The notes under the pieces were generated by a model. The model did no database searches and was not told the origin of the DNA. It saw only the letters and a program-made list of their open reading frames with translations. From Candidatus Omnitrophota bacterium (GTDB taxonomy: Bacteria; Omnitrophota; Gorgyraeia; Zapsychrales; Zapsychraceae), in NCBI GenBank assembly GCA_015233115.1, contig JADFYJ010000013.1:9670-73669 (forward strand): a stretch of 64,000 nt of DNA, written 5' to 3'. Of this stretch, positions 19,468 to 47,780 are shown piece by piece. The translations under genes and the position numbers were made by a program. Positions within the stretch are counted from its first letter, which is position 1. Every line of letters begins with the position of its first letter.

Positions 19468-19475
19468 AACACATA

Positions 19476-28826: not shown

Positions 28827-30311
28827 TTATTGCCCCGGTCTATTTTTAAACGACTGAATCATGTCTCCAAAACTGGCGAATTGCCCTAAAGAACCATAAT
28901 AAGCGAGATATAAAAATAATATACTTCTCAGTTTTCCCCATATGGCCCCATAGCGTTTGCTCCGTAAAAGTTTTTTGATTTCCAACCCATGTAATCCGCG
29001 GTAAACAAAATTTCTTAAATACGCGGCAGACCTGAACTCCGAAAGATTTACCAGATACTTATCCTGGCTGGTGACTTTAAGCAGATAATCCCGTTCATCT
29101 TTAATCAAACCTTCGGCAATCGCTTGATCATACATCGGCGATCCTGGATAAGCTGTCGCAAACCACACCTGAAATTGATCCTCGGTCATGCCATACTGTT
29201 CCTGCAAATCATAAAGATATTCCAGGAATTTAAATGTTTCTCTTACCGTAGCCTTATTCTCGCCAAAATGGCCAAAAAGAATATTCGTCCGGCTAATCAT
29301 CCCATGTTTAAGCGTAAGCTCTAAAGCGCGCTTATTATCTTCTAAAGTCACTTCTTTTTTCATCAGTTTCAACATCTTAGGGCTTCCAGATTCCGTCCCA
29401 TATCCGATACGTTTAAAATCCGCTTTTTTCATAGCTATAATCACATCTTCCGTTACCAAACTTGGTTTGCCGCCGCCGCAAGAAAAAGTTAAGCCCAACC
29501 CGGAAGTGCTGAGCGCTTCACACAGAGCAATAAACCATGTTCTATCAACAAAAACCAGTTCATCGTACAAGGACACACCCGTAATATGAAACTGCTCTTT
29601 CAAATATTTTAAATGCCGTAAAATATATTCAATGGAATGATGCCGCCATTTCCGGATCAGCCGAAAACAAAACGTGCAGGAAAAAGGGCAGCCCCGGGTA
29701 AAAATCATAGTGATGATGCGGGGAGACACTTTCCCATCAGCCATCTCTTGCCTGAAAATTTTTGTGGCGTATTGAATATAAAATTCCATGTCTACCAAGT
29801 CATAGGCTGGAAATGAAATCGTGTCGATATTTTCGATATACGCGGACTGTTGTTGAGACGCCTTAAAAACTTTTCCCTGCCGATAGTAAATATTAGGAAC
29901 CAGTTCCCAATTTTTATTCCCGCGCATTTCTTTGAGGAGCTTAATAACTGTTTCTTCCCCTTCTCCCGCGCAAATAAAATCAATCGGCGTATAAGCTTGA
30001 ATAATTTTTAACGCGGAAACCCCTACGGAGCCGCCTAATAACAAGGGAATTTCCGGAAAATTATTTTTAAGAATTTTACTCAAGCGTTCCACTTGATAAT
30101 ACGCGGTGATGATCCCGCTAAAGGTGATTAAATCCGGCTGAAAATTTTTGATTATTTCTAAAAGATTGATTTCACTTTCTGAATAGCGAACTAAATCAAT
30201 CAATTTAATTTCATGCCCGGCATCCCTGAGTGCGGCAGCAATGTACAAAACTCCCAAATTTAAAAAAGCATGGTCATTTTTCGTTTTTAAATTAATCAAA
30301 ATAATTTTCAT
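28827..30311 (-). CDS. Cobalamin-binding radical SAM enzyme (class B rSAM methyltransferase-like)
   Basis: N-terminal B12-binding-like domain followed by the radical SAM cluster motif FTRGCPFSCTFC. Confidence 0.7.
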   Translation of the reverse strand: MKIILINLKTKNDHAFLNLGVLYIAAALRDAGHEIKLIDLVRYSESEINLLEIIKNFQPDLITFSGIITAYYQVERLSKILKNNFPEIPLLLGGSVGVSALKIIQAYTPIDFICAGEGEETVIKLLKEMRGNKNWELVPNIYYRQGKVFKASQQQSAYIENIDTISFPAYDLVDMEFYIQYATKIFRQEMADGKVSPRIITMIFTRGCPFSCTFCFRLIRKWRHHSIEYILRHLKYLKEQFHITGVSLYDELVFVDRTWFIALCEALSTSGLGLTFSCGGGKPSLVTEDVIIAMKKADFKRIGYGTESGSPKMLKLMKKEVTLEDNKRALELTLKHGMISRTNILFGHFGENKATVRETFKFLEYLYDLQEQYGMTEDQFQVWFATAYPGSPMYDQAIAEGLIKDERDYLLKVTSQDKYLVNLSEFRSAAYLRNFVYRGLHGLEIKKLLRSKRYGAIWGKLRSILFLYLAYYGSLGQFASFGDMIQSFKNRPGQ

Positions 30312-30372
30312 TTTTCATCCTTTTTACTGGTCGGAATTCCACCGAGAGTGATCACTTCATACCTGACCCCTT

Positions 30373-32124
30373 TTATCGACATAACGCTTTGACAGTATTT
30401 TTCCAATCTATGAGCCAGTCATTTTTTACTAAAGCAAAACGATCACAAAATTCTTTCCTGGCCATTTGCACTTTTTCTGTGAGCCACCATTGTTTAGGAT
30501 CATGAAAAACTTCCTGAATTTTAAGCGCTGCTGACAAGGGATCTTTGAACAATATACCGGCTGTTCTTAATTTTTCATAATAGGGTTCGGACTCGGGTCT
30601 CATGAGAAACACATTATGATCCCAAAACAAAATACACGGCACATTCATGACCAATGCTTCCAAATATGACGTCGACGGATGATCAATAAATACCATTTTG
30701 CATTTTGATAGTCTATCCGTCAATAAGCCCTCGCGAATAAATTTGATTGGCGGGCACATGTCTTTGATTTTTTCCTCTTCACCCCAGCCCCAGTCAACAC
30801 TGTAACATCTATAGGATAAATTATTTTTAATTTCATCAGGGAGATGGCTGATAAATTGTTGCTTATTGATAAAATATTCTGGCACATCATCCGCGGATAA
30901 CTCAGCATCAAAGCGAAGATAATAACGGGCAGCACCCGTTCCTACCATGATACATTCATCGGATTGCTGTTTATGGATGTCTTTCAGACGGCATAAATAA
31001 GGATTTGTTAAAGATTTAGTATTCGATTGTTTTTTATCCCATCCCCAAGTAAAAAAAATATCTTTTTGTAAAGCAAATTGTTCAAAAAAACAACTATGGG
31101 ACCCGCCAAATCCCCCCCCATGCTGGAATTCCATTAATTGAGCGCCGTTTCGCATTGCTTCAGCCGCAAAAAATTTAAACGGCTCATTATATCCCCACCC
31201 AAACGCTGAACCGACAGCTTTGATATGAGAACCGTTCCTATTTTTTAAAACACATTCCCTATTTGAGCTATAACCCTCTAAATAAACTTTAGGTAAGGCT
31301 TTAGGTATTAATCCAGTAAAATATTGTTCAAAACCACTTGGACGGACAAAATTGATCGAAAAATCTCTCAAGGCCTTATTATAAAGAGATGGGGAAAATG
31401 CTTTTGGGAATATGTTCCTAAAACTTAAAGCCGTTAAACCGGTTTGAATTTTTAACCTTAATTTATCTTTAAAACTCAAATGTTGGGTTTGATTCAACAC
31501 AATTTTTCCCGGAAAAACCTGATCAATACCTCTTAAAATAAAATTACTTAAGTTTAATTTCGAAGACTTTTGCTCTAAATTTTTTTTTGTATTCCATGGC
31601 ACGTCTAAAAGTTTTTTTAATTTATGGGGGAAAAAATGCTGACAAATATCAGTATACAAATTCGCGTTGAAACAATCATCATTATTTAAAAAATAAACAA
31701 AATGAATCGTATCATTTATTTGTAAAAAATCATCTGAAACAGCAACCCCATTAATGAAACCGTCCGGATATTGCGCAAAAGCATTATCCAGTCTTTTATA
31801 TCGATCATAAACAACATGAATAAAAGATAATAACCATGGCCCCAATAAAATCTGCCAATAACGATCAGAAAAATTTACCTGATGAATCTGGTTGAGTTCT
31901 CCCGCTAAAAGCGGCAGAATTTGTTGATAGACCTCATAACAATAATCGGCCGCCTCTTTGATTCTGGTTGTGGGCCTCCAGGGTGTGGGAATAATTTGAC
32001 CATGATGTTCTTCATAATATTTTTTACACGCCGGATCCGTTAAACACCACAAACCTAAAACCAATAGTTTTTGTTGTTTTTCCCACGTAGACAAATGCGG
32101 CGTTATGGCTATAAACGATGACAT
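30373..32124 (-). CDS. Large uncharacterised putative transferase (resembles the LIC12162-type family found beside NulO genes)
   Basis: 583 aa with no GT-A/GT-B motifs. Family resemblance is from memory of that family's typical context and not verifiable here. Confidence 0.35.
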   Translation of the reverse strand: MSSFIAITPHLSTWEKQQKLLVLGLWCLTDPACKKYYEEHHGQIIPTPWRPTTRIKEAADYCYEVYQQILPLLAGELNQIHQVNFSDRYWQILLGPWLLSFIHVVYDRYKRLDNAFAQYPDGFINGVAVSDDFLQINDTIHFVYFLNNDDCFNANLYTDICQHFFPHKLKKLLDVPWNTKKNLEQKSSKLNLSNFILRGIDQVFPGKIVLNQTQHLSFKDKLRLKIQTGLTALSFRNIFPKAFSPSLYNKALRDFSINFVRPSGFEQYFTGLIPKALPKVYLEGYSSNRECVLKNRNGSHIKAVGSAFGWGYNEPFKFFAAEAMRNGAQLMEFQHGGGFGGSHSCFFEQFALQKDIFFTWGWDKKQSNTKSLTNPYLCRLKDIHKQQSDECIMVGTGAARYYLRFDAELSADDVPEYFINKQQFISHLPDEIKNNLSYRCYSVDWGWGEEEKIKDMCPPIKFIREGLLTDRLSKCKMVFIDHPSTSYLEALVMNVPCILFWDHNVFLMRPESEPYYEKLRTAGILFKDPLSAALKIQEVFHDPKQWWLTEKVQMARKEFCDRFALVKNDWLIDWKNTVKALCR

Positions 32125-32136
32125 AATAATCCTTAT

Positions 32137-33075
32137 CTATTTCTGGCTTTTGGCCTGAAAATATATTTCGTTCTGAATATAATAAACCACTTGCTCAACC
32201 TCCGCGGGTGACATTCTGTTCATGCCACGAAAAATCTCCAGGTACTGTTGAAGCTGTTCAATTCGGGAAGCCGCTGGAATCACACTATTAATGGCCGGAT
32301 TCGATAATATGAAATTTAAAGAGAACGGCAATACCTCTTGGGCGGTTAAACCAAAATGCGTCTTAATTTTCTCTAAGTTCTCCAATCGTTCGCGAAATAG
32401 CTCACCTTTAAAAAATTGACTCCGCGCATCCATGGGTTGAAATTTTGTTTCTAAAGTATACCGGCCGGATAATATACCGCTGTTAAGCGGAGACCGGATA
32501 ATGACCATTTTTCCCTGTTCCCGGCTTTTTTTCAAAAATTCATGACACCCCACAAAAAGTAAATTATAAAAAATTTGTAGCGACGTGATGTGTTGATCTT
32601 CCAGGTAATAGCTGTCTTCATCAATAATAGAAATACCAAAATGACGAATTTTCCCTTCCTTCTTCATTTGTTCAGCAAAACTCAAAATTGAGTCATTCAC
32701 GTCTTCCACTTGAGGCTTGGCCAATTGAAAAATATCAATATAATCTGTTCTCATGCGTTTAAGTGATTTTTCCAAACAACCTCGCACATAAGAAATAGAA
32801 AAATCCCGTTTCCCCAAATCAGTGATACCGCATTTAGTGGCCAGGCATATTTTATGCCTGTCCGTCGCAAACGCCACGCCGATAAAATCTTCCGCTAACC
32901 CATATTTATCCGATGTATCAAAAAAGTTAACCCCCTGATCAAACGCGTAACGCAATATACGCACCGCGTCATCTTGCGCCACAGGTTTAGCGCCAGTCCA
33001 TTGCCCATCAATTAAAGTAGGGCCTCCGATCTGTGACGTACCAAAACCTAATTTGTTTATCTGGGCGATTTCCAT
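32137..33075 (-). CDS. Aldo/keto reductase
   Basis: AKR (alpha/beta)8 blocks (..FDTSDKYG.., ..IRHFGIS..). Confidence 0.7.
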   Translation of the reverse strand: MEIAQINKLGFGTSQIGGPTLIDGQWTGAKPVAQDDAVRILRYAFDQGVNFFDTSDKYGLAEDFIGVAFATDRHKICLATKCGITDLGKRDFSISYVRGCLEKSLKRMRTDYIDIFQLAKPQVEDVNDSILSFAEQMKKEGKIRHFGISIIDEDSYYLEDQHITSLQIFYNLLFVGCHEFLKKSREQGKMVIIRSPLNSGILSGRYTLETKFQPMDARSQFFKGELFRERLENLEKIKTHFGLTAQEVLPFSLNFILSNPAINSVIPAASRIEQLQQYLEIFRGMNRMSPAEVEQVVYYIQNEIYFQAKSQK

Positions 33076-33077
33076 GA

Positions 33078-34094
33078 TTACTTAGCGCTATTTTTGTACC
33101 CTAAATTGCAATCCCGGCAAAAAGGGATTTTGTCATGCTGCTTTTGCAGATGGCATTCACGGATATGTTTTGATATTTTTGAATTCCAGCACTCCTCAAT
33201 CGTCGTGTTTTTTAAATTCCCCAAATCGTATTCCTCTTTTTTGTAATGGCGAAAAGTCATACCGCAAGGTATCACATCCCCGTTATAGCGGACGATTAAT
33301 AATTGGAATGCTCTAAAGCAAATAAATTTTTTTAAATCATCTGCGCTTAATTCTTCCTGACTGTTGACGAAATGTTTAAAATCAACCATAGACTGGATAG
33401 AAATCAAATTCACCTTATCCTTCCATAAATTAATAAACGCCTCCCGTTCATGTCCATTGTCCTTTTGAAGAACAAAGCTCACCCGGGTACGAATATAATC
33501 TTTTTTCATTTTCTTTTTTAACTCTAAAAATTTCATCACATTTTTCACCACGAGAGGATAATTGCCCCCTATGCGAATTTTGTCATAAGTTTGTTCGGTG
33601 GCCGCGTCAATAGAAAAATTCATCTTGGTAATGCCATTTTTAATAAGAGCCTCAGAAAGCTCTTCGGTGAGTAAATTGGCATTCGTATGCAGCCAAATAT
33701 CAAACAATCCAGCATCCTGCGCTTCCTTCACCATGTCCGCAATGCGCGGATTGGTCAAAGGTTCACCTTCATGATCCATCATAATGGCCGACATTTGGTG
33801 TTGGCTGGCCTCTTTTAGCAATTTTGTATATATTTCTGGCTCTAAAAAACCTTTTTCATCAAACGTGCCAATCACTTCGCGGGCACACATAGGACATCGT
33901 AAGTTGCAATAATATGAGGATTCCACTTCCACGCAAAGGGGAAAAGGAAAAATATGTCCTTCAGAGGCCATTTTCCAATTTCTCCGGTATTCTTCGTATC
34001 GGGGAAACTGTCGATTCATGATTTTTTCCCAAGAAGGATCAACCGGATATTCACATATTTTATATGATTCATCAAATTGACTGTCTATGCCCAA
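33078..34094 (-). CDS. Radical SAM protein with C-terminal Cys-rich SPASM/twitch-like domain
   Basis: CNLRCPMC cluster motif; the C-terminus has CWNS..C..C..CRDC cysteines. Confidence 0.7.
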   Translation of the reverse strand: MGIDSQFDESYKICEYPVDPSWEKIMNRQFPRYEEYRRNWKMASEGHIFPFPLCVEVESSYYCNLRCPMCAREVIGTFDEKGFLEPEIYTKLLKEASQHQMSAIMMDHEGEPLTNPRIADMVKEAQDAGLFDIWLHTNANLLTEELSEALIKNGITKMNFSIDAATEQTYDKIRIGGNYPLVVKNVMKFLELKKKMKKDYIRTRVSFVLQKDNGHEREAFINLWKDKVNLISIQSMVDFKHFVNSQEELSADDLKKFICFRAFQLLIVRYNGDVIPCGMTFRHYKKEEYDLGNLKNTTIEECWNSKISKHIRECHLQKQHDKIPFCRDCNLGYKNSAK

Positions 34095-34135
34095 GGTGAC
34101 CCCTTTCTGTATATCGTTCCCATTAAATACCCTAA

Positions 34136-35083
34136 TTATAATTTCACGATTTCAAAAGCACTATAACAGGATTTACGTTCCAAACCGATGATGCGATTAG
34201 AAAATAATATATAAAAAATAAATATGACCGGATACCAACACACCATCCAAAAAAACTTCAAAATAGTTCTAACCCCCCTGGGCCATAAATTAAAAAACCG
34301 GATGAGACCCTTTAATAAAGGACGGGTTTGTATATCGTAAATGTTCCACGCTAAAGGGCTTAATCCCCGCTCTTCGCGCAATATCCGCAGTCCCATCCCG
34401 GCAAATAATGCTATCCATTCTTTTTCAGAACGCGCCATTGAACTAATCTCATCATGGCGTCCATTATCCAATTTTTTAAAATATTCAGCCCAAAATCTTG
34501 ATTTCATTTTCCGGCTTAAAACATAACACACAAAAGCCGTTTTCACATACTCACTATAACGGAGTATGAGCATCCGCCCTCCGGGCTTAAGAATCCGGCT
34601 AGCCTCTCTTAACGCGGCATCATGATCTTGCAGCCCATGCGGAGTGTAATAAAAAATTTTTTCCACAGAATGATCGGCTATGGGCAATTGCTCATAAGCT
34701 GCAACCTGCGCCTCTTCCGCAAAACCGATTTCTTTGATCTTCTGAACATGGGACTCTTTGGCATCCACCGCAAGACGGATACGAGGATAATTTAATTTCC
34801 GCTCCGGCCGCACCACATCCGCTTTATGCGTATCAAAAATATCTTTATTTCCCATATCAACCATTAAATACCGGTCAAACCATAAAGGAAAACTTCCCCC
34901 ATGCATAATGTATGTAAACTCGCCATCTCCTGAGCCTAACTCAACAACATCGCCATCCCAATTAAAACTCGTCAACAGACTCGCCGTGAGCGTATCATTG
35001 ACCGCATCAAAAGGTTTTAGATAATAAAGATTCAAATACTGCCACAATCTTTTCATCACAAAAGAATAATTCACTGCACCCAT
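34136..35083 (-). CDS. Class I SAM-dependent methyltransferase with C-terminal hydrophobic segment
   Basis: VVELGSGDGEF motif I and LKPGGRMLI motif. Confidence 0.6.
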   Translation of the reverse strand: MGAVNYSFVMKRLWQYLNLYYLKPFDAVNDTLTASLLTSFNWDGDVVELGSGDGEFTYIMHGGSFPLWFDRYLMVDMGNKDIFDTHKADVVRPERKLNYPRIRLAVDAKESHVQKIKEIGFAEEAQVAAYEQLPIADHSVEKIFYYTPHGLQDHDAALREASRILKPGGRMLILRYSEYVKTAFVCYVLSRKMKSRFWAEYFKKLDNGRHDEISSMARSEKEWIALFAGMGLRILREERGLSPLAWNIYDIQTRPLLKGLIRFFNLWPRGVRTILKFFWMVCWYPVIFIFYILFSNRIIGLERKSCYSAFEIVKL

Positions 35084-35126
35084 ACAAAAATCCTATCGAT
35101 TTCTTATGAAACAAAAATTTAACCAC

Positions 35127-36926
35127 CTATACCTTTTTTAAAATCAAAAAATGATTAAGCCATAACCCTTCCAATCCGCTATTTTCCAAAACATAAATAG
35201 CGTCTTCAGGTGTATTCACGATAGGAAACCCGTGTAAATTAAAACTCGTATTCAATAACGCTCCCCGGCCCGTAATCTTTTCAAACGCTTCCAAAAGAGC
35301 ATACACATCAGGGTTGACTTCCCGGTTTAATATTTGCGGGCGGGCAGACCTATCTGCCGGATGACAAGCAGCCGGCATAGCCGCATGCCCCTCATCAGTC
35401 GTCGCAAAACCAATGGTCATATGCGGACATTTCAATTTTTTGGGATTGAGCAAATAACGATCCGCGCATTTGTCCATAACCACGGGGGCGAAAGGCATCC
35501 AAAAATCACGGCTTTTGATCGCGGCATTTATTTTTTCTTTAGCCTCTAAACGGCTAGGATCAGCAAAAATGGAGCGATTGCCTAACGCCCTCTGCCCAAA
35601 CTCCATACGTCCGGCAGAACGCGCAATAATTTTTCCATCCGCCAATAACTGGGCGATACTTTCCACATCAACACCTTTGCGAACTTCAAAATGGCGTTGA
35701 TCTAGTTTTTTAACGGCCTGCTCTTCGCTTGCAAAATCCGCGTCCGGCCCCAAATAAAGATGCGGCAAATCAGCAACTTGTTTCGCGTCCCATTTTTGGC
35801 CTTTTTCTTGGGCTAGGTCTTCCGCTAAACAAATACCGCTGCTAATGGCCATGGATTCATCGCTTCCTGAGCCGCCAATAAACATTTTTTTGACTTCAGG
35901 TAATTCGGCAATTTTTCCCATTGCTTTAATATTCATCGCGACACCACCAGAGAGCACCACGGTCGAAATACCAAAATCTTTTACCGCATTTTGCACCCAA
36001 GCGGTCAGAAGTTCTTCGACCCAAATTTGCAAGGCCCACGCGATATTGTCAAACCGGACTCCTTCTAATCTGTCTCTAAACCAAAAATAACTATCTGTTG
36101 GTTTGATCTTCCATTTAAATTCATGGCCTTCGACATAAAGCGTTTCACGAAAACAATCTAAAGCCCTTTTAGCATATTTTTCTTTTCCATAAGGCGCCAA
36201 GCCCATTACTTTAAATTCATGCTCATTGGGTTTCATACCTAGTACGAGGGTAATATACCGATAAATGCGTCCTATATTACATTCCGCCGTTTCATAAACC
36301 CGCCGATAGGTTGCTTTATTATCAAAAATTCCAATCGTCGCGTTTAATCCATCACCCATTCCATCAATCGTGAATGCCAAAACCTCCTTATCGCGAAACG
36401 GTGACGAATAATAAGCATAAGCCGCATGGCACCGGTGATGTTCAATTAAATGTACTTTTTCCTCGGGAATAGCCAAATAATCCGCCACAAGTTTAGTGCG
36501 ATCACGGTAAAATTGTTCCATCCGATCTGGTTTTTCAAAATTGGCTTTAAAATATTCACTCGGAAACTGGTCAAAATCGATTTTTTCCGGAAACGTTTCT
36601 ATCAAAGACTTTAATTTTTTTTCTCCCTGGATCAAATAAGGTTTCCATCGGAAACGTTGTTCGTGTAAATAATCTTCGGTAGACCAGGTACTGCGCTTGA
36701 CCAGAATATCATCCAGAGGACTTACATAACTGGCCAGGGCAACACCATCCAAATCCTGGGCGCCGTTTTTCAAATCTTTCAGACAATACTGAATAGCCTT
36801 CTCCGGAAAAGCATCTTCATTTTTCTTACGGGTAAAACGCTCTTCATGAACGGCCTTAGCGACCACCCCGTCAACGAGCAAAGACGCGCTGGAACACAAC
36901 CCCCAATACAAAGACAATATTTTCAT
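35127..36926 (-). CDS. NodU/CmcH-family carbamoyltransferase
   Basis: EHHRCHAAYAYY and GQRALGNRSIFADPS conserved blocks, about 600 aa. Confidence 0.75.
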   Translation of the reverse strand: MKILSLYWGLCSSASLLVDGVVAKAVHEERFTRKKNEDAFPEKAIQYCLKDLKNGAQDLDGVALASYVSPLDDILVKRSTWSTEDYLHEQRFRWKPYLIQGEKKLKSLIETFPEKIDFDQFPSEYFKANFEKPDRMEQFYRDRTKLVADYLAIPEEKVHLIEHHRCHAAYAYYSSPFRDKEVLAFTIDGMGDGLNATIGIFDNKATYRRVYETAECNIGRIYRYITLVLGMKPNEHEFKVMGLAPYGKEKYAKRALDCFRETLYVEGHEFKWKIKPTDSYFWFRDRLEGVRFDNIAWALQIWVEELLTAWVQNAVKDFGISTVVLSGGVAMNIKAMGKIAELPEVKKMFIGGSGSDESMAISSGICLAEDLAQEKGQKWDAKQVADLPHLYLGPDADFASEEQAVKKLDQRHFEVRKGVDVESIAQLLADGKIIARSAGRMEFGQRALGNRSIFADPSRLEAKEKINAAIKSRDFWMPFAPVVMDKCADRYLLNPKKLKCPHMTIGFATTDEGHAAMPAACHPADRSARPQILNREVNPDVYALLEAFEKITGRGALLNTSFNLHGFPIVNTPEDAIYVLENSGLEGLWLNHFLILKKV

Positions 36927-36928
36927 AT

Positions 36929-38008
36929 TTACTCGCCTATTTTCTGTTTCCGATTAATATAATTTTGAATCTGAACCGTGCGGCCATTAACCTCCGCGGT
37001 TTCGTTAATTTCCATTTTTCGCGGATAAAAACATTTTCGGCACGGATCGACGCGCATGAAACCATCTTTTTGAAAATGCATCTGCCTGGTTTCATTGAGT
37101 TTTTCGCCATGCCATATGTCATATATCGATTGAATTTTGGCATCCCCAACAGGCCATTCCACAAAATCATCACTACTACACATACTGGCCCGCCCATCCG
37201 ACGCGACCACGACACGTTGATATAATTGTGGACAATAAAAATTTTCTTCATAAACCACGTCATGATCCTTATGCAAATAATCAATCAAAGGATTAAACGC
37301 TATAAAATCAACATAAGGCGCCAAAGTATTATAAAATTCCGACGGATTAGGCCGGATGGCAGGCCAAACCCCCTGAATTTTTATAACTGGCTTCGTCAAA
37401 CCATTTTCATCCTTATATTGTTTTATTTGTTTCAAGTGCTCCAAGGTGTCAGCAAATTTTAAAGGCTTTCTCACGGCCTCATATTCTGCTCCTACACCAT
37501 CAACCGAAAGCGTCATCCAGTCTAATCCCGCTTCTGTTAACTTTTTAAAATATGCCAGATCAAGGCGAGAACCATTGGTTAAAAAACAAACCTCTTGAAT
37601 ACCTTTAGATTTAGCATAGCGAATAATATCTAACAAATCCGGGTGCAAGGTTGATTCCCCTATCCAGCTGAGCCGCAGTGAAAAAATATGACCTGAAACC
37701 TCGTCGATAATCTTTTTAGCCAAGGAAGTTTCCATAAACTTTTTATTACGTTTCTTCTGAAAATCTTCCGTGCGGGTCGGACACATGGGACACAACAAAT
37801 TACATATGCTGGATAATTCCAAATCCACCAAAAGCGGCCAGTCCCTTACCTCTCCCTTTTGCGGTAACTCATCCCATAAACGCCGATATTCGTGATAATC
37901 AACTTCCCAACCCTTGGACATTTTCACGCGAAACGATTCAATCCTTTCCGTCGTCTCCAGCTCAAAATGTCCTTTGTTTACCGGAACATTTTTTTCTTTC
38001 GTACTCAT
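36929..38008 (-). CDS. Radical SAM protein with C-terminal SPASM-like domain (second copy)
   Basis: CNLLCPMC cluster motif and C-terminal Cys-rich region (..CSSDD..C..C..). Confidence 0.7.
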   Translation of the reverse strand: MSTKEKNVPVNKGHFELETTERIESFRVKMSKGWEVDYHEYRRLWDELPQKGEVRDWPLLVDLELSSICNLLCPMCPTRTEDFQKKRNKKFMETSLAKKIIDEVSGHIFSLRLSWIGESTLHPDLLDIIRYAKSKGIQEVCFLTNGSRLDLAYFKKLTEAGLDWMTLSVDGVGAEYEAVRKPLKFADTLEHLKQIKQYKDENGLTKPVIKIQGVWPAIRPNPSEFYNTLAPYVDFIAFNPLIDYLHKDHDVVYEENFYCPQLYQRVVVASDGRASMCSSDDFVEWPVGDAKIQSIYDIWHGEKLNETRQMHFQKDGFMRVDPCRKCFYPRKMEINETAEVNGRTVQIQNYINRKQKIGE

Positions 38009-38046: not shown

Positions 38047-39060
38047 TTAGCCTATTGATTGATTAAGCTGCATCTTTTTTACAATTTCAAAATAAGGACG
38101 AAGATCTCCGCCAAAGCTCAACTTAAACCACCCCCGCTGAGGACTATTCACGCCTTCTAAATCAACTTCATGGATCCCCTGTTGACTCATGACAGAAAAA
38201 GCATCCCAAAGAACGGCAGTCCCCGTATGCTCATCGCGTAAAGCCGGATCATTGGCACCAAAAATATAATACGCTCGTTTCGGGTCTATCCCGAAATACG
38301 CCATACTCCCTGGTTCGCCATCTTGTGTATAAGAAATAAACATTTTTCCTAAATCTGCGGCATAGGTGTTTACTAACAAATCCTTCATCTCAGTTAAAAC
38401 ATCATCAGCAACTTTAATATCCTGACGATTCATGGTGCGGGCGTAGAAATCCACAAACCGAGCGGCATCGAATTCTTCGACGGTTTTTACTTTCTTTTGA
38501 ATGGCGTAGCGTATTTCTTGACGTCTGGACTTTGAGGCTTTTAAATAAATGCTGATATCTTCCAATTTTTGAGCTTGCGCAAAATCATGGATATCCACAT
38601 AACTGGTATACCGGACATTTACAGAAAATTTAGGTAATTCTGTACCAAAGTTCACCCATAAAAAAGGACGCACATCAATGATAGTGGGATGTAAAGACAA
38701 CTCAATTTTGTTATAGCGCTTCATGAGTTCATCCGCGGCATAAGTGGCGATCAAAAAACGTTCCGATAATATCTGATCGTGATTCTGCCGATGCATAGGA
38801 GCGCCAAATAAAATTCCGGTATAGATCACATAATCATGCGAACAAAACTCCTGGCCATCCGGTGTCGTCACACACAAAAGCGCGGCCCTAAGTTCGGCCC
38901 GATGATAAATATAATAAGGCTTAAAATTCCCACGCAAAGAACGCAAAAAATCAGAGTATAAAAACATTGTCCCGTTTTCTGAAGCAGCGACAAATATATC
39001 CCACTCTCGATCTAATTGAGTTTCAACCAAACGATATTCGTTAACTTGTTCTCTTTGCAT
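38047..39060 (-). CDS. FemAB-like/GNAT-fold acyl- or aminoacyl-transferase (Acetyltransf_6-like)
   Basis: Size and composition resemble FemAB-family transferases; weak motif support only. Confidence 0.4.
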   Translation of the reverse strand: MQREQVNEYRLVETQLDREWDIFVAASENGTMFLYSDFLRSLRGNFKPYYIYHRAELRAALLCVTTPDGQEFCSHDYVIYTGILFGAPMHRQNHDQILSERFLIATYAADELMKRYNKIELSLHPTIIDVRPFLWVNFGTELPKFSVNVRYTSYVDIHDFAQAQKLEDISIYLKASKSRRQEIRYAIQKKVKTVEEFDAARFVDFYARTMNRQDIKVADDVLTEMKDLLVNTYAADLGKMFISYTQDGEPGSMAYFGIDPKRAYYIFGANDPALRDEHTGTAVLWDAFSVMSQQGIHEVDLEGVNSPQRGWFKLSFGGDLRPYFEIVKKMQLNQSIG

Positions 39061-40132
39061 TTAACATCCCGATAATTTCTCCGGAAATGCGATGAATATA
39101 AGCATCATCAATCTCCTGGTTAACCCATAAATTTAAAATATTAGCGCCGATCCACTCACTCACTATCTGCGGCCCGGAAATTTTTCCGCTCATAAAAAAA
39201 CTAGCTGATGGCTGCCAACTGCTAATTTTAAAATTTTGTTTAAGCAAATGGCGGAATACCCGATTACGCTCATCTGAAATAAAAAAGTTAAACCGCCAGT
39301 CTACAGATCCCTCCGGAGGATTAAAAAACTCAACGCCCGACAGCTGGGCTCGATCAAAAATCTGCGTAAATTTCTCCCTATTGGAACGGCGGGCAGCAAT
39401 ATTCGCCTCAATGTTTTCCAATTCTGCGGTTAATTTATCCGCATAATCCAATGAAAATTTGTGCATAAAATTATTTTTAACTAAATGCATTTCATCCTCA
39501 AAACAGAGACATTCGTCCACTCGCCCTTCCAAAAAATATTGATTATAGATCTGCGTATGCCGACGGCTTAATTGATTAATTTTATCTTCAGCCTCTGAGG
39601 AAAATTTCCTAAATCCATTTTGAATAAAAACCATTTCCTCATAAAGTTTCTTATCATTAGTCAAGACCGCACCGCCATGTCCGATATCAATAATTTTTCC
39701 AGCGCCAAAACTCACGACCGAAATATCCCCAAAACTTCCCGCGGGCCGGTGATGAATAGTAGCCCCTTCTGCAAGAGCAAAATCTTCAATCAACGGGATA
39801 TTATTTTCTAAACAAACCTTGGAAATCTCTTCAATATCACAAACCGCTCCATACGCATGAACAGCTATCACCGCGTCAATGTCCCTCACGTTTCTCTTAA
39901 TCTCATCCAGCGAAATTCCCAAATTTCTTTTCGTGACATCCAAATACACCGGCAAATTATTAGAAAGCCTCACCCCAATCGGAACGTTCACACACACATT
40001 ATTCGGGATGGCAATCCGCTTACTCTTTAACCCCAATGCCGTTAAAGCTAGCATAATTCCAGCCGTAGCATTCCCGGTCAAAAGCACATATTCCCGTTGA
40101 TGTAATTTTGACAAAAGCTGTTCAGACTTCAT
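39041..40132 (-). CDS. DegT/DnrJ/EryC1-family aminotransferase (second copy)
   Basis: PLP lysine motif SFGAGKII and fold-type I blocks. Confidence 0.7.
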   Translation of the reverse strand: MKSEQLLSKLHQREYVLLTGNATAGIMLALTALGLKSKRIAIPNNVCVNVPIGVRLSNNLPVYLDVTKRNLGISLDEIKRNVRDIDAVIAVHAYGAVCDIEEISKVCLENNIPLIEDFALAEGATIHHRPAGSFGDISVVSFGAGKIIDIGHGGAVLTNDKKLYEEMVFIQNGFRKFSSEAEDKINQLSRRHTQIYNQYFLEGRVDECLCFEDEMHLVKNNFMHKFSLDYADKLTAELENIEANIAARRSNREKFTQIFDRAQLSGVEFFNPPEGSVDWRFNFFISDERNRVFRHLLKQNFKISSWQPSASFFMSGKISGPQIVSEWIGANILNLWVNQEIDDAYIHRISGEIIGMLNAKRTS

Positions 40133-41427
40133 GTTTTCTCAATCACTCCACATTTTTCTAATTTATGAATCACGGACGACACCAGCTTTTCTTCTATCCC
40201 TAAGCGATAGACCATGTCCGTGACACTCATAGAGCCGTCCATCACAAATAAAACCTTCAAAATCACATCCAATTCCGTCATTCGCATGTTACCAGGAATC
40301 TGTGCTCCGCCGCTTTCCGGATAAAGACCATGCCGGCTTAGCATCACTTCTCCGTGCGGTTCAACCCGGCGGTAAACTTCCCGATTTTCGATTTTATCAA
40401 TAACCTTTAAATAAATCTTTAACGTTTGCTCAATATTCTCCGCAGATACAAAATTTAAATCATCTTGTGAGGTATGATATTGCGGATAATCATAATATTT
40501 ATCTTTGGTCACACTCACAGTATTGATCCGAAAGCCAGGTGAAGAATACTGACGTTCATCACTCCCATGACCGTCAAAAGGGTAAATTTTATATTGTCCT
40601 GCTCCGTATTCGTCGGACAACACCTCAGCAACAATTTGGTTCAAATAATGATCAGCATCCCAACTTTGTTTATATCCCATCATTCCCGGACCGCCGGCCG
40701 TCGTGACAACAAAACCAGCCGCGATTTTTTTCATGATAGTTTCATTATGCGCCAAATACGCAACCGCGCCAATCGTTTCCGGAATCCAAATAAACCGGTA
40801 GCTGTAATTACATTTTTTTTTCGACAATTCGTCCGCTAAAAAGGCGGTTAAAACCAGACCGCTCAGATTATCATTCGCTAATGATGGATGGCAGATATAA
40901 GTTGAGATTAAAATTTCTTGCGGCTTTTTCCCCTTAATAAGCCATTCCCCATAGGTCAAACCGCCGTTTTTAAATTCAGCCTCGATACAAACCTCATACT
41001 CTTCATCCGCATCAATAAATTTTTTATAATCCGCGAAACTTAAACAAAAACCCCAATCTTTTTTGTAATAACTTGTCCGGTAAGGAATCGCTTGCGGATA
41101 ATTTTCTAAATAATGTAAGTGCTTTGCCAGTTCTACGCCTTTTATTTTTTTACATACCGGTTCACTGTAACTAACCACATGCAAATTTGTTTTCTTAAAA
41201 TCAATAATTTTTTCGCCTTGCGCGTTCTTGATCCAAGCATCCTGAATATTCCATTCTTGCGGAACTATCCAATCAAAAACTTTCTGACCCGACGGATATT
41301 CTCCGATTTTGAGCGGGATTAATTCTGATAAAATCCGCAATGTTTCCCTATTCCCTTCGCCCGTAATACTGCGGCAAATCGGAAAAAGCTGTTGCAAATA
41401 GTTTTCTATGTTTTGAACGCGATCCAT
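40129..41427 (-). CDS. Aminopeptidase-like-domain protein with C-terminal winged helix (COG4310-like), polysaccharide-locus associated
   Basis: 432 aa with an M28-like metal-ligand pattern (H..D..E..H); architecture recalled from glycan loci. Confidence 0.4.
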   Translation of the reverse strand: MDRVQNIENYLQQLFPICRSITGEGNRETLRILSELIPLKIGEYPSGQKVFDWIVPQEWNIQDAWIKNAQGEKIIDFKKTNLHVVSYSEPVCKKIKGVELAKHLHYLENYPQAIPYRTSYYKKDWGFCLSFADYKKFIDADEEYEVCIEAEFKNGGLTYGEWLIKGKKPQEILISTYICHPSLANDNLSGLVLTAFLADELSKKKCNYSYRFIWIPETIGAVAYLAHNETIMKKIAAGFVVTTAGGPGMMGYKQSWDADHYLNQIVAEVLSDEYGAGQYKIYPFDGHGSDERQYSSPGFRINTVSVTKDKYYDYPQYHTSQDDLNFVSAENIEQTLKIYLKVIDKIENREVYRRVEPHGEVMLSRHGLYPESGGAQIPGNMRMTELDVILKVLFVMDGSMSVTDMVYRLGIEEKLVSSVIHKLEKCGVIEKT

Positions 41428-45959: not shown

Positions 45960-47030
45960 TTACATCCTTTTAAATAGTGAAATCATTTTTTCATCAGTCA
46001 GGATTTTTCGAAAGTCTTTACCTAACGCATTGGTCAAAGGTTTCTCGTGAATGACTGAAGAATTCAACAATTGCTGATATTTTTCATTGGATAAATTCGC
46101 GCCAATCCCTTTTGGTAATTTAACTTTTTGCTTAGTCATCATGGTCTGATATTCCGCGTATTCCGCCGGATAAAACTCTTCCAAAACATTCATCGCGTAA
46201 CAATTGGCAATACCATGATGCATTTTAAGCGCAATACTTAAACCAGCAGAAACCGGATGGATTACGCCTACATTTCCAGCCGCGCAACCGCCCAGATAAG
46301 AGGCGATCATCATTTTTTCCCGGTTTTCATCACTCATCATATCGGCTGACAAAAAAATCTGCCGGCACATCTCAACCGCTTTTTCCGACAATGCGTCGAC
46401 CACCACATTCCGGTAACTTCCCCGTAACGATTCCACACAATGAAAATATGTATCCATGCCTGTATAAAAATATTGATCCCTGGACACTGTCACCGAAAGA
46501 TCCGGATCCATGATCAGCTGATCAAACATGGTAAAATCACTATTCATACCCAATTTAATTCCCCGGGCTTCATCTGTTAAAACACAAGTCCTCGACGACT
46601 CTGAACCTGTTCCCGACAATGTTGGAATACCAATTTTATAAATTCCCTGACCTTTCACTAAATCCCAACCCTGATACTGCGCGGCTTGTCCGCCATTAGT
46701 CAAAAGGTTGGATAAAGCCTTGGCCACATCCATGGTAATTCCGCCGCCAATACCCACTACGCAATACGGCAATTCACTGCCCACTTGATCTCTCAAATAA
46801 TCAATATCGGTATTTTTAGGTTCGTCTTTAGTATCAATGTAAAAAATTATATCTTTTTTGCCCGTCGGTATTAAATTGATCAAATCCCTGCCTTTAAAAA
46901 AAGCATCAATACAAAATACGACCCGACCGTTTTCAGAATGAGGAACATTCTTCAACAAATCGCCTAAAGCCCGGATAGCTCCTTTACCAAATACATAATA
47001 AGGCACATTTTTAATATTGCGAAAATTCAT
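45960..47030 (-). CDS. Iron-containing (type III) alcohol dehydrogenase family oxidoreductase
   Basis: VVGIGGGITMDVAK glycine motif and metal-binding His residues in the C-terminal half. Confidence 0.7.
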   Translation of the reverse strand: MNFRNIKNVPYYVFGKGAIRALGDLLKNVPHSENGRVVFCIDAFFKGRDLINLIPTGKKDIIFYIDTKDEPKNTDIDYLRDQVGSELPYCVVGIGGGITMDVAKALSNLLTNGGQAAQYQGWDLVKGQGIYKIGIPTLSGTGSESSRTCVLTDEARGIKLGMNSDFTMFDQLIMDPDLSVTVSRDQYFYTGMDTYFHCVESLRGSYRNVVVDALSEKAVEMCRQIFLSADMMSDENREKMMIASYLGGCAAGNVGVIHPVSAGLSIALKMHHGIANCYAMNVLEEFYPAEYAEYQTMMTKQKVKLPKGIGANLSNEKYQQLLNSSVIHEKPLTNALGKDFRKILTDEKMISLFKRM

Positions 47031-47626: not shown

Positions 47627-47660
47627 CTTATGTCAAACAAAAAAGAGACATAAAATAAAT

Positions 47661-47762: not shown

Positions 47763-47780
47763 TATTTATTTTTTATTTTA

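Follow-up and report, generated by a model that had tools for sequence, protein, structure and literature searches.

The window, a 64,000-nucleotide stretch of DNA from a Candidatus Omnitrophica MAG, carries three radical SAM (rSAM) genes within one long minus-strand operon (Table 1). We refer to two of them as rSAM_B and rSAM_C and to the third, which encodes a B12-binding domain, as the B12-rSAM. All three open reading frames (ORFs) begin and end exactly where an earlier note on this DNA had placed them, and each product matches the Pfam Radical_SAM model and contains a CxxxCxxC motif. The neighbors were also as first described: a LIC12162-family transferase, an aldo-keto reductase (AKR), a methyltransferase, a carbamoyltransferase, NeuB, a CMP-transferase, DegT aminotransferases, and a PseG-like hydrolase. 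The intergenic gaps, however, had been put at 2 to 40 nt, whereas those measured across the rSAM region were 23, 61, 12, 2, 41, 43, 2, and 38 nt (range, 2 to 61 nt). A consensus promoter upstream of the first gene is the probable start of the operon.

Table 1. Genes and regulatory elements of the glycan operon and its borders, in window coordinates
Position	Strand	Feature	Match or remark
47718-47764		Strong terminator, 20-bp stem	Between the promoter and the upstream BtuB-like gene
47609..47636	-	Sigma-70-type consensus promoter, TTGACA-16-TATAAT	12/12 consensus match
47027..47590	-	MarR/HTH_24 winged-helix regulator	Operon gene 1
45960..47030	-	Fe-dependent alcohol dehydrogenase (Fe-ADH) family protein	Type A cassette; Pfam Fe-ADH 91.8 bits
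44779..45957	-	DegT-family aminotransferase 1, PseC-like	Pfam 279.9 bits
43173..44795	-	Fusion: weak cytidylyltransferase-like N terminus and PseG-like nucleotide-sugar hydrolase	TIGR03590
42494..43198	-	CMP-sugar synthetase (CTP_transf_3)	Pfam 85.6 bits
41427..42488	-	NeuB-family nonulosonic acid synthase 1, divergent	Pfam NeuB 241.6 bits, SAF
40129..41427	-	DUF4910/DUF2172 M28-like metallohydrolase, winged-helix tail	
39041..40132	-	DegT-family aminotransferase 2	Proposed rSAM_C partner; Pfam 126.3 bits
38047..39060	-	FemAB-like GNAT acyltransferase (Acetyltransf_6, AcT6)	
36929..38008	-	rSAM_C, twitch-type radical SAM enzyme, core member of NulO cassettes	Pfam Radical_SAM 60.6 bits, SPASM 42.2 bits
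35127..36926	-	NodU/CmcH-type carbamoyltransferase	Carbam_trans_N 119 bits, Carbam_trans_C 188 bits
34136..35083	-	Class I SAM methyltransferase, 315 aa, hydrophobic C terminus	Upstream partner of rSAM_B
33078..34094	-	rSAM_B, twitch-type radical SAM enzyme, rSAM_C paralogue	Pfam Radical_SAM 58.0 bits, SPASM 50.6 bits
32137..33075	-	Aldo-keto reductase (AKR)	Proposed ketoreductase partner of rSAM_B; Pfam 163.2 bits
30373..32124	-	LIC12162-family transferase	TIGR04331 397.7 bits, cutoff 225
28827..30311	-	B12-binding-domain radical SAM enzyme, class B architecture	Pfam B12-binding PF02310 60.5 bits (cutoff 32.1), Radical_SAM 77.5 bits
27361..28803	-	MBOAT (AlgI-like) membrane O-acyltransferase, adjacent O-acylation module	Next operon gene downstream of the B12-rSAM
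26853-27296		DUF1574-like fragment	After MBOAT

The nonulosonic acid (NulO) synthase fell under both equivalog cutoffs (NeuB, 318.5 versus 399.65; PseI, 230.4 versus 340.25), as did the first DegT protein for PseC (TIGR03588, 230.9 versus 423.5 bits) and residues 212 to 465 of the fusion protein for PseG (143.3 bits, cutoff 153.55). The same order of 10 genes recurs in Aliarcobacter, Pelagibacteraceae, and other phyla. Cassettes headed by MarR-like genes also occur in Pelagibacteraceae L006/L007, L017, L042, L048, and L073. Syntenic counterparts were found for the Fe-ADH (54 to 58% identity; L005, L008, L013, L014, and L016), the PseG-like fusion (L005, L008, L013, L016, and L061), and the carbamoyltransferase (54 to 61% identity; L005-L008, L013, and L061). 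The DUF4910/DUF2172 gene is syntenic in every type A locus, its Pelagibacteraceae version being fused to CTP_transf_3, and in those loci the gene directly before rSAM_C encodes the Acetyltransf_6 protein. The Fe-ADH shares its family with the Kdo 8-oxidase KdnB (PMC5125639). The LIC12162-family gene, found again in L005, L088, L089, L090, and L130, probably encodes the transferase for the modified sugar.

The CxxxCxxC motif is invariant among the aligned homologues of all three rSAM proteins (C69/C73/C76 in rSAM_C, C63/C67/C70 in rSAM_B, and C208/C212/C215 in the B12-rSAM). The earlier note had called rSAM_B and rSAM_C SPASM-type enzymes. Both do match the Pfam SPASM model, but only four C-terminal cysteines are invariant in each family (C259, C277, C323, C326 and C259, C277, C326, C329), as opposed to the seven-cysteine motif of a full SPASM domain. 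They are therefore better described as twitch enzymes, with the one-auxiliary-cluster cysteine pattern of BtrN. Among solved structures, BtrN was the top match of the rSAM_C profile (E = 1.1e-13, the alignment taking in the core as well as the auxiliary-cluster segment) and of rSAM_B (E = 5e-7); Foldseek ranked BtrN first and DesII second for rSAM_C. Identity to BtrN is only 17 to 20%. The two proteins aligned to each other by hhalign with 100% probability (E = 3.9e-56). From these sequence comparisons, rSAM_B and rSAM_C are paralogues, both members of a BtrN-like twitch family that has one predicted auxiliary [4Fe-4S] site.

Genomes of at least 576 species, those of Rhizobium, Neorhizobium, Aliarcobacter, and archaea among them, carry a relative of rSAM_C. 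Where 5 kb or more of DNA flanked the gene on either side (49 loci), a NeuB-type synthase occurred within 10 kb in 46, across phyla; CTP_transf_3 was present in 45, an SDR in 42, and DegT in 32. The direct neighbors of rSAM_C in these loci were SDR (26), NeuB (17), a PtmE-like nucleotidyltransferase (9), DegT (8, among them L007, L008, and L009), and AcT6 (5). Thus, two widespread types of NulO cassette share rSAM_C as a conserved core gene. In the commonest, type B, the SDR beside it could be merely the 4-ketoreductase of the 4,6-dehydratase step. Twitch-family relatives are also fused to CTP_transf_3, to 2-hydroxyacid dehydrogenase (in two independent clusters), and to an FkbM methyltransferase. 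Fusions of rSAM_C to NeuB, SDR, and methyltransferase were singletons without a linker and may be frameshift artefacts.

A different association holds for rSAM_B. The AKR gene lay directly downstream of it in all six loci examined (AKR orthologues, 37 to 55% identity), so that the two form a fixed gene pair, and a B12-binding rSAM was usually found within one or two genes (5 of 6 loci). Methyltransferase homologues (27 to 44% identity) directly precede rSAM_B or a relative in L133 (319 aa) and L006/L007; L088 has a different methyltransferase in this slot, and in L089 a 27% homologue is nearby but not adjacent. The three rSAM genes of the window fall within seven consecutive genes, and an rSAM_C-like gene, the rSAM_B-AKR pair, and a B12-binding rSAM recur beside NeuB in the independent loci L088, L090, and L133; this clustering is therefore more than chance. 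The B12-rSAMs beside rSAM_B-AKR elsewhere share 22 to 28% identity with that of the window. The trio is not one unit: rSAM_C belongs to the core cassette, whereas rSAM_B, the AKR, and the methyltransferase form a separate module, usually with a B12-rSAM near. The proposal that the rSAM genes belong to a glycan or NulO pathway is thus borne out by NeuB and CTP_transf_3 around rSAM_C and by the AKR after rSAM_B.

We propose that a horizontally mobile cassette for making a modified NulO spans about 47636 to about 28800 and that the rSAM region is its tailoring half, in which the twitch enzymes would oxidize sugar carbinols for downstream amination or reduction and the B12-rSAM would methylate carbon; we give this reading as a whole a probability of about 0.55. 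A 5'-deoxyadenosyl radical would take the carbinol hydrogen from a nucleotide-linked sugar or CMP-NulO, and an electron would pass on to the auxiliary cluster to leave a ketone, as in BtrN. The ketone made by rSAM_C would go to the adjoining DegT aminotransferase 2, and the new amine would be acylated or carbamoylated by the Acetyltransf_6 protein and the carbamoyltransferase; in the Rhizobium-type cassette, the adjacent SDR would receive the ketone instead. The rSAM_B ketone would be reduced by the AKR, resulting in net epimerization or, after dehydration, deoxygenation. The B12-rSAM would most likely C-methylate an unactivated sugar carbon, and the LIC12162-family transferase would move the finished sugar to a surface glycan. 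For the AKR there is a precedent in EpaA (CTP_transf_3 plus AKR domains), which acts with the SDR EpaB in C8 epimerization of pseudaminic acid (PMC12053666). An 8-amino NulO occurs in the O-polysaccharide of Flexibacter maritimus (PMC3210612).

The methylation step has the strongest competitor. Tentatively, the B12-rSAM could instead catalyze dehydration, rearrangement, or cyclization of the AprD4, OxsB, or BchE type, or act on another repeat-unit sugar or the polymer rather than on a NulO; we consider this somewhat unlikely. Its AlphaFold2 model (pLDDT, 90.5) matches MgmA, TsrM, CysS, and TokK, but Foldseek puts OxsB, AprD4, TsrM, and MgmA in the same band of E-values, from 5e-21 to 6e-20, sequence profiles place AprD4 (E = 9e-11) near the methylase MgmA (E = 3.7e-12), and the top NCBIfam match is BchE (154.7 bits versus a cutoff of 481). 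Methylating and nonmethylating chemistries are therefore indistinguishable by sequence or fold. On the other side, the B12-binding Pfam match is canonical and well over threshold, the NCBIfam AprD4 model covers only residues 154 to 410, and most characterized enzymes of this architecture are methylases. B12 uptake is encoded next to the operon, and the riboswitch-controlled BtuB-like receptor together with MetH indicates that the organism uses B12. Action on something other than the NulO would fit the position of the gene after the transferase and beside MBOAT. The four relatives examined (56 to 58% identity for P0002, P0004, and P0005; 36% for P0010) all lie in surface-glycan loci, although not always beside NulO genes: L131, the locus of a close orthologue, has none within 8 kb.

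It is distinctly improbable, in our judgment, that one or both twitch enzymes are DesII- or AprD4-like lyases, eliminating an adjacent amino or hydroxyl group and so producing a keto-deoxy sugar for the AKR or SDR to reduce; the NulO, or the hexose from which it is made, would end up deoxygenated or deaminated. DesII lacks an auxiliary cluster, whereas both twitch families keep the four-cysteine site, which accompanies net oxidation in BtrN and anSME; moreover, no 7-deoxy or similarly deoxygenated NulO was met in the literature consulted.

Direct radical epimerization, with hydrogen returned to the opposite face and no ketone released, appears just as doubtful. NulO diversity consists mostly of epimers, twitch and SPASM carbohydrate epimerases such as HygY and NeoN are known (AviX12 would be a further model), and fold searches do not separate dehydrogenases from epimerases. 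Known sugar and peptide rSAM epimerases, however, rely on a cysteine donor, and alignments of homologues revealed no invariant cysteine beyond the seven cluster ligands in either family. Conserved tyrosines and histidines (in rSAM_C, e.g., Y226, Y244, Y253, Y263, H122, and H300) are possible donors instead. Direct epimerization would also leave the AKR, SDR, and DegT neighbors with unrelated roles, whereas the constant rSAM_B-AKR pairing and the frequent SDR or DegT beside rSAM_C better fit the handing on of a ketone. The lack of a spare conserved cysteine thus favors dehydrogenation as in BtrN, with transamination or reduction as the next step. Of the earlier suggestion of radical C-methylation and/or epimerization, the link to the pathway holds, direct epimerization is disfavored, and C-methylation is the likeliest of several chemistries that fit.

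We reject the idea that the rSAM genes encode peptide or cofactor maturases (anSME, AhbD, PqqE, or sactipeptide type) merely residing in a glycan operon: the AhbD, PqqE, NirJ, MoaA, and sactipeptide/ranthipeptide families scored 5- to 10-fold under their cutoffs (PqqE, 52 versus 381; AhbD, 51 versus 500), no precursor peptide fits the gaps of the rSAM region, just four auxiliary cysteines are conserved, and rSAM_C keeps company with NeuB across phyla. The scanned window ORFs, which took in every operon gene between about 1246 and 47590 apart from ORF 12617-13222, also contained no sulfatase, haem, or PQQ gene. Neither a maturase with a nearby precursor nor loss of CxxxCxxC in orthologues, the two findings that the earlier note had named as fatal to its proposal, was observed.

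Full-text literature searches found no paper joining radical SAM enzymes to nonulosonic, legionaminic, or pseudaminic acid synthesis, in agreement with the earlier note, which knew of no described pathway of this kind. The association of rSAM genes with NeuB points to sugar chemistry for which we found no published description, and the family to which rSAM_C and rSAM_B belong is large and uncharacterized and accompanies the gene for the NulO synthase in hundreds of species, bacterial as well as archaeal.

Positions from approximately 1246 to 47590 of the window are occupied almost wholly by a single minus-strand gene array. The earlier note had placed three radical SAM (rSAM) genes here, within a nonulosonic-acid (NulO) glycan operon, and all three open reading frames lie exactly where it put them, each with a Pfam rSAM domain and a CxxxCxxC motif: a B12-binding enzyme (B12-rSAM) and two smaller enzymes, rSAM_B and rSAM_C. 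Between them are genes for a LIC12162-family transferase, an aldo-keto reductase (AKR), a class I methyltransferase, and a NodU-type carbamoyltransferase. The 5' part of the operon encodes a FemAB-like acyltransferase, two DegT aminotransferases (DegT1 and DegT2), a DUF4910 metallohydrolase, a NeuB-family synthase (NeuB1), a CMP-sugar synthetase, a PseG-like hydrolase fusion, an Fe-ADH, and a MarR regulator. The intergenic gaps are indeed short, but they range from 2 to 61 nt rather than from 2 to 40 nt. The operon carries both a NeuB synthase and a CTP_transf_3 gene and is thus a NulO cassette. NeuB1 could not be assigned to the Neu or the Pse equivalog (318.5 bits versus a cut-off of 399.65 for NeuB and 230.4 versus 340.25 for PseI).

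Features of the window, with positions and strand
Feature	Position	Strand	Description
Third CMP-activation module	2407-7883	-	Wzx-like flippase, HpcH/HpaI aldolase, FkbM methyltransferase, CTP_transf_3, 2-hydroxyacid dehydrogenase, HAD phosphatase
Second NulO pathway	8694-24390	-	Legionaminic-acid type
ORF, 403 aa	11395-12606	-	No significant Pfam match
PIG-L deacetylase and formyltransferase	15867-17419		Adjoin NeuB2
NeuB2	17416-18447		Second synthase; passes NeuB cut-off, 483.9 bits
Tailoring-type genes	19476-22296	-	ATP-grasp ligase (PylC-like N-terminus), PHP-domain phosphoesterase, 372-aa methyltransferase
LegB	23392-24390		TIGR04180, 504 bits, above cut-off
ORF, 616 aa	24400-26250	-	No significant Pfam match
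ORF, 190 aa	26256-26828	-	No significant Pfam match
B12-rSAM	28827-30311	-	494 aa; Pfam B12-binding and Radical_SAM
LIC12162-family transferase	30373-32124	-	TIGR04331, 397.7 bits (cut-off, 225)
AKR	32137-33075		Aldo-keto reductase
rSAM_B	33078-34094	-	338 aa; Pfam Radical_SAM and SPASM
rSAM_C	36929-38008	-	359 aa; Pfam Radical_SAM and SPASM
DegT2	39041-40132		Aminotransferase
NeuB1	41427-42488		NeuB synthase, 241.6 bits
CTP_transf_3	42494-43198		Same operon as NeuB1
DegT1	44779-45957	-	Aminotransferase
Fe-ADH	45960-47030	-	Neighbor of DegT1
Terminator	47718-47764		20-bp stem
TonB-dependent receptor	47781-49814	-	
Cobalamin riboswitch	49867-50024	-	RF00174, 49.1 bits
MTHFR	50839-51717	+	
ORF, 350 aa	52400-53452	-	No significant Pfam match
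MetH	54169-57774	-	
NrdD and rSAM activase NrdG	61230-63908	-	

The cobalamin riboswitch was considered as a part of the operon and rejected. It lies directly 5' of the TonB-dependent receptor gene, which it governs, and a strong terminator ends this separate transcription unit before the consensus promoter of the glycan operon. The receptor presumably serves BtuB-like B12 uptake. Methyl-cycle genes and anaerobiosis markers (MetH, MTHFR, NrdD, and NrdG) adjoin the operon, whose products include the three rSAM enzymes and no fewer than five SAM methyltransferases. With NrdD, NrdG, MetH, and the riboswitch-headed receptor in the window, its organism is evidently a B12-using anaerobe. A Leptospira rfb locus, as suggested by the LIC12162 match, a DUF1574 fragment, the MarR gene at the start, and the GC content, was rejected as the origin, since all three rSAM proteins are 100% identical to proteins encoded on a contig of a Candidatus Omnitrophica metagenome-assembled genome.

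With PF04055 (Radical_SAM; threshold, 29.5 bits), B12-rSAM, rSAM_B, and rSAM_C scored 77.5, 58.0, and 60.6 bits, respectively, and the AF2 models of rSAM_C and B12-rSAM, the two proteins modeled, match radical SAM structures. The CxxxCxxC motif proved invariant in the alignments of homologs of all three (A1 for rSAM_C, A2 for rSAM_B, and A3 for B12-rSAM). The earlier note described rSAM_B and rSAM_C as SPASM-type. Both do match the Pfam SPASM model above threshold because this model covers the half that is shared with twitch enzymes, but the SPASM motif itself, CX9-15GX4C-gap-CX2CX5CX3C-gap-C, comprises seven cysteines for two auxiliary clusters, and the two proteins conserve only four. In A1 (n = 14; mean column identity, 67%), the sole invariant cysteines are C69, C73, and C76 plus C259, C277, C323, and C326; in A2 (n = 19), they are C63, C67, and C70 plus C259, C277, C326, and C329. 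Conserved in both families is only CX12GX4C, a gap, and CX2C, which is the twitch pattern of BtrN.

BtrN was also the best match of the A1 profile among all PDB sequences (E = 1.1e-13). The core and the auxiliary-cluster segment align, and C259, C277, C323, and C326 fall on cysteine positions of BtrN in the HMMER alignment. The best PDB sequence match of rSAM_B was likewise BtrN. The rSAM_B and rSAM_C profiles align with each other along almost the whole of both (hhalign probability, 100%; E = 3.9e-56; 23% identity), and both proteins carry an N-terminal helical hairpin with a YxxYRxxW motif. Judged by their sequences, rSAM_B and rSAM_C are paralogous twitch enzymes. No curated NCBIfam model captures their family, and neither protein reached any family threshold in that collection; with NF033640 (N_Twi_rSAM), rSAM_B scored 57.7 and rSAM_C 71.7 bits versus a cut-off of 170, as relatives rather than members.

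The rSAM_C family is found at approximately 57 to 69% identity across Bacteroidales, Spirochaetales, Methylovulum, Pelagibacteraceae, and Aliarcobacter. A pattern scan with one genome per species yielded at least 576 genomes with an rSAM_C relative, and among 1.84 billion cluster representatives, 878 matched in a profile search at an E value of 1e-30 or lower. The carriers include cultured Rhizobium etli, R. phaseoli, R. esperanzae, and R. hidalgonense as well as Neorhizobium, Ferrovibrio, and Azospirillum agricola, and there are archaeal carriers in Nitrosopumilus, Nitrosotalea, and Thermoplasmata. The RefSeq names of the family are generic. Phage carriage of rSAM_C, considered by analogy with epaAB, was rejected, as no relative on viral contigs exceeds 34% identity.

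Gene neighborhoods were counted by tblastn of every window protein against fetched loci, 49 of which extended at least 5 kb on each side. A NeuB homolog lay within 10 kb of rSAM_C in 46 of the 49 loci, and CTP_transf_3 did so in 45, an SDR in 42, PIG-L in 38, a PtmE-like nucleotidyltransferase in 33, and DegT in 32. The immediate neighbors (within 400 nt) were an SDR in 26 loci, NeuB in 17, the PtmE-like nucleotidyltransferase in 9, DegT in 8, and AcT6 in 5.

Two types of cassette were distinguished among these loci. Type A is found in the window, in Aliarcobacter sp. ERUVET-7 (L005), in six metagenome-assembled genomes (L008, L013, L014, L016, L044, and L061), and in Pelagibacteraceae (L006/L007). 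Its order is FeADH, DegT1, PseG fusion, CTP, NeuB, DUF4910, AcT6, and rSAM_C, followed by DegT2 (not always present), carbamoyltransferase, methyltransferase and rSAM_B (also variable), and LIC12162. The Fe-ADH and DegT1 genes at its head form a conserved neighboring pair, with a logic like that of KdnB and KdnA, which make 8-amino-Kdo in Shewanella. KdnB, an Fe-ADH, prepares Kdo for transamination by oxidizing its terminal alcohol (PMC5125639), and the FeADH-DegT1 pair would parallel these steps; by this analogy, the pair suggests amination of a terminal carbon in the ulosonic acid.

Of the 49 loci, 33 are of type B, among them every one from Rhizobium. Its order is LegB-like 4,6-dehydratase, nucleotidyltransferase, SDR, rSAM_C, NeuB, CTP, a PseG-like gene in some loci, and PIG-L, and its dehydratase is approximately 60% identical to the LegB of the window. 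Pfam confirmed the WbqC of type B cassettes in one locus alone, that of R. etli SEMIA 471 (L054), where the cassette stands behind DegT, Wzm, and Wzt (Wzm and Wzt being O-antigen export genes). Type B matches also occur on plasmids, namely, NZ_HG938356.1 of Neorhizobium galegae, with its rSAM_C ortholog at 486030-487088, and NZ_CP076854.1. We know of no report of a NulO from these cultured rhizobial strains.

Gene fusions were seen as well. Twitch paralogs are fused to CTP_transf_3, to 2-hydroxyacid dehydrogenase (in two independent clusters), and to an FkbM methyltransferase (P0416, P0455, P0394, and P0419), and these fusions recur. Those of rSAM_C orthologs to NeuB, an SDR, or a methyltransferase are each singletons without a linker; they therefore add little support and may be artifacts. 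One of them, an apparent NeuB::rSAM_C reading frame of 703 aa observed once (L132), may be due to a frameshift. In this locus (Logan SRR10090144 contig, 906-5532), the genes that follow it encode a carrier protein, an AMP-binding adenylating enzyme, and an Antibiotic_NAT-type N-acetyltransferase.

The rSAM_B family is smaller, with 71 matches. Six contexts were examined for orthologs of at least 43% identity (the window, L088, L089, L090, L133, and the P0155 locus), and in all six an AKR gene, which covaries with rSAM_B at 37 to 55% identity, directly follows it. Five of the six also have a B12-binding rSAM one or two genes away. In the window, L133, and L088, rSAM_B is preceded by a methyltransferase gene; that of L133 encodes a homolog of the 315-aa enzyme of the window. 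NeuB, CTP_transf_3, and/or LIC12162 are nearby in every context except the P0155 locus, around which only CTP_transf_3 was seen. An rSAM_C-like gene is present in L088, L090, and L133 too, so that the rSAM triad recurs independently.

The architecture of B12-rSAM is that of class B, with a B12-binding domain at residues 18 to 123 (PF02310; 60.5 bits versus a threshold of 32.1) and the rSAM domain at residues 202 to 363. It has eight close homologs (51 to 58% identity), beyond which identity is 36% or less. Relatives occur in three glycan loci with NeuB, CTP_transf_3, or LIC12162 (L001, L003, and L130), which also hold further B12-rSAMs, twitch rSAMs, and ABC exporters. In L131, an ortholog of 56% identity is surrounded by genes for glycosyltransferases and WbpB/D/E-like proteins and has no NulO gene less than 8 kb away, and the B12-rSAMs that adjoin rSAM_B and AKR elsewhere are only 22 to 28% identical to that of the window. 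B12-rSAM is a recurrent accessory of glycan loci. The earlier reading is supported in part: membership in a NulO pathway stands, as does the lack of a published description, whereas the SPASM label, the assumption that the three rSAM enzymes form a single unit, and the specific chemistry need revision or testing.

Class B cobalamin-dependent methyltransferases share with B12-rSAM an N-terminal B12-binding Rossmann domain followed by the rSAM barrel and are its best structural and sequence matches; GenK and Fom3 are members of this class that act on sugars and CMP-linked substrates. We propose that the B12 enzyme would C-methylate an unactivated carbon. That it does not methylate, or that it acts on another sugar or on the polymer, is a serious possibility. 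Its AlphaFold model (pLDDT, 90.5) matches the methylases MgmA (9CCB), TsrM, CysS, and TokK and the nonmethylases OxsB and AprD4 equally well, with E values of 5e-21 to 6e-20 for MgmA, OxsB, TsrM, and AprD4. The top sequence matches were MgmA (E = 3.7e-12) and AprD4 (E = 9.2e-11), and every match to an NCBIfam equivalog fell far below its cut-off.

For the twitch enzymes, the closest characterized relative is BtrN, the 2-deoxy-scyllo-inosamine dehydrogenase of the butirosin pathway (PDB 4M7T). The likeness extends to the rSAM core, the C-terminal twitch domain, and the arrangement of the four cysteines (C-x17-C, a gap of approximately 45 residues, and CxxC), and BtrN was the top Foldseek match of rSAM_C, the only twitch enzyme modeled. 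BtrN has a carbohydrate-like substrate and is paired with the DegT-family aminotransferase BtrS, a tandem mirrored by rSAM_C adjoining DegT2. However, BtrN is only 17 to 20% identical to the twitch proteins of the window, lacks both their conserved N-terminal helical hairpin of approximately 55 residues (with YxxYRxxW) and the conserved C-terminal beta-hairpin of rSAM_C, and serves aminoglycoside rather than NulO or surface-glycan synthesis. In BtrN, in the related twitch dehydrogenase SpeY, and in anSME, the auxiliary cluster accepts an electron as the carbinol radical collapses to a carbonyl. The steady neighbors of the two twitch families are ketone-consuming enzymes, with DegT or an SDR beside rSAM_C and AKR beside rSAM_B. 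Because of the four-cysteine site of BtrN, the lack of any further invariant cysteine, and these ketone-consuming neighbors, we propose oxidation to a ketone. Thus, rSAM_C would oxidize a secondary alcohol of a nucleotide-linked sugar or a CMP-NulO. The ketone would pass, in the window, to DegT2 for transamination, after which the resulting amine or a nearby hydroxyl would be decorated by the FemAB-like acyltransferase and the carbamoyltransferase; in type B cassettes, the SDR may reduce the ketone instead. Together, rSAM_B and AKR would bring about net epimerization or, after a dehydration, deoxygenation.

A lyase reaction like that of DesII or AprD4, followed by reduction, is a plausible alternative, especially for rSAM_B with AKR, and fold searches did not discriminate among dehydrogenase, lyase, epimerase, and peptide chemistry. 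The conserved auxiliary cluster nevertheless favors oxidation. DesII, a TDP-4-amino-4,6-dideoxyglucose deaminase/dehydrogenase (PDB 8HZY), is redox neutral as a lyase and lacks this cluster; its identity to the window enzymes is 13 to 17%, and its model (TIGR04426) gave 34.6 bits versus a cut-off of 450. Direct radical epimerization, as by HygY or NeoN, is disfavored: the known rSAM epimerases of sugars and peptides use a conserved cysteine as the hydrogen-atom donor, which is absent here, and the partner enzymes consume ketones. That the rSAM genes encode peptide or cofactor maturases is effectively excluded by family scores, gap sizes, and synteny: none of the maturase equivalogs (PqqE, AhbD, NirJ, MoaA, sactipeptide, ranthipeptide, and tungsten cofactor) scored above cut-off (at best 114.6 versus 380 bits for W_rSAM_matur; 52.2 versus 381 for PqqE and 50.7 versus 500 for AhbD), and no precursor peptide or sulfatase, heme, or PQQ partner lies beside the rSAM genes, whose neighbors are all sugar-pathway genes.

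Oxidation followed by reduction has a precedent in NulO synthesis. EpaA (CTP_transf_3 plus AKR) and EpaB (an SDR), like AciE-type oxidoreductases, epimerize C8 of pseudaminic acid to give 8-epi-pseudaminic acid in Acinetobacter baumannii (PMC12053666). At the level of domains, the rSAM_B-AKR pair resembles this system of two enzymes with an AKR-domain reductase; it differs in that the oxidant of the Epa system is an NAD-dependent SDR rather than an rSAM enzyme and in that EpaA is fused to a cytidylyltransferase. EpaA-like AKRs were sought in phage records with the AKR of the window, and only generic, uninformative AKR matches (24 to 30% identity) were obtained. A distant parallel is the 36-kb plasmid pBHWA1 of Brachyspira hyodysenteriae (NC_012226.1, L091). 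Its surface-glycan (rfb) locus contains seven annotated rSAM/SPASM genes interleaved with rfbABCD, rfbF, and glycosyltransferase genes, with six matching places that are 25 to 29% identical to rSAM_C. Clusters of rSAM genes in glycan loci are thus already visible in public annotation, although pBHWA1 lacks NeuB and a CMP-transferase and is built on dTDP-rhamnose and CDP-glucose chemistry. We know of no characterized functions for its rSAM genes.

The rest of the array holds further NulO-related modules. The second NulO pathway encodes, besides LegB and NeuB2, a LegC-like enzyme, a NeuC-like epimerase, a HisH/HisF amidotransferase pair, PtmE-like and PtmF-like proteins, and a CMP-transferase. 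Its PIG-L and formyltransferase genes are arranged as in "Ca. Kuenenia," where they have been tied to free-amine or N-formyl NulOs (2026 preprint). The ligase, phosphoesterase, and methyltransferase genes between LegC and an SDR, with NeuB2 beyond, may together tailor the second NulO by adding N-acyl groups or amino acids. In the third module, the Wzx, HpcH/HpaI, and CTP_transf_3 genes have counterparts behind LIC12162 in L005 and L088; in L090, Wzx and HpcH/HpaI flank LIC12162, and the FkbM methyltransferase is present too. The 2-hydroxyacid dehydrogenase and HAD phosphatase were found elsewhere only in L130, and in some genomes the module is accompanied by a twitch rSAM of its own. The 616-aa and 190-aa reading frames sit between an MBOAT module and LegB; the former was considered as a second LIC12162-type transferase and rejected, as it has no similarity to the LIC12162 transferase.

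Sugar-tailoring rSAM enzymes (BtrN, DesII, AprD4, and GenK) and NulO pathways are each well known. In agreement with the earlier note, which knew of no described pathway, searches of 8 million full-text papers found no link of radical SAM enzymes to nonulosonic, legionaminic, or pseudaminic acid synthesis and nothing relevant on rSAM with NeuB or Leptospira rfb. Here, twitch and class B rSAM chemistry appears to have been recruited into NulO biosynthesis, and the real news is the tight linkage, across domains, of the rSAM_C family to NeuB.

Two reports of unusual sugars bear on the possible products. A 5,7,8-triamino NulO occurs in the O-polysaccharide of Flexibacter maritimus (PMC3210612), and CMP-activated C10 "higher-carbon ulosonic acids" have been detected by mass spectrometry in Magnetospirillum, without genes assigned (bioRxiv 10.64898/2026.04.20.719630). 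The latter are a lead for C-methylation by the B12 enzyme, not evidence of it. In the broadest reading, rSAM_C would mark a widespread, unrecognized branch of NulO synthesis, in which radical dehydrogenation leads to an added keto, amino, or epimeric center, and B12-rSAMs would C-methylate a CMP-sugar to give the Magnetospirillum C10 acids. Such a branch would make, for example, 8-amino or 8-epi NulOs like the F. maritimus triamino acid. We consider this combined reading unlikely, at about one chance in five.

The host of the window is an uncultivated Omnitrophota bacterium, but the rSAM_C family is also present in the cultivable and genetically tractable Rhizobium etli, Neorhizobium galegae, and Aliarcobacter and is therefore directly testable. 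The way in which hosts, phages, and immune systems perceive microbes is shaped by NulOs, a group that comprises sialic, legionaminic, and pseudaminic acids and related sugars. To our knowledge, the known NulO pathways use only NAD-, PLP-, and acyl-CoA-dependent chemistry. The rSAM_C family, as tightly linked to NeuB as the CMP-synthetase is and present in at least 576 species that range from Rhizobium to Nitrosopumilus and SAR11, would extend these pathways by a type of reaction new to them. The family could account for orphan sugars such as 8-amino NulOs, unassigned masses, and C10 ulosonic acids, and the nucleotide-sugar substrates of radical SAM enzymes would grow by a large new set.
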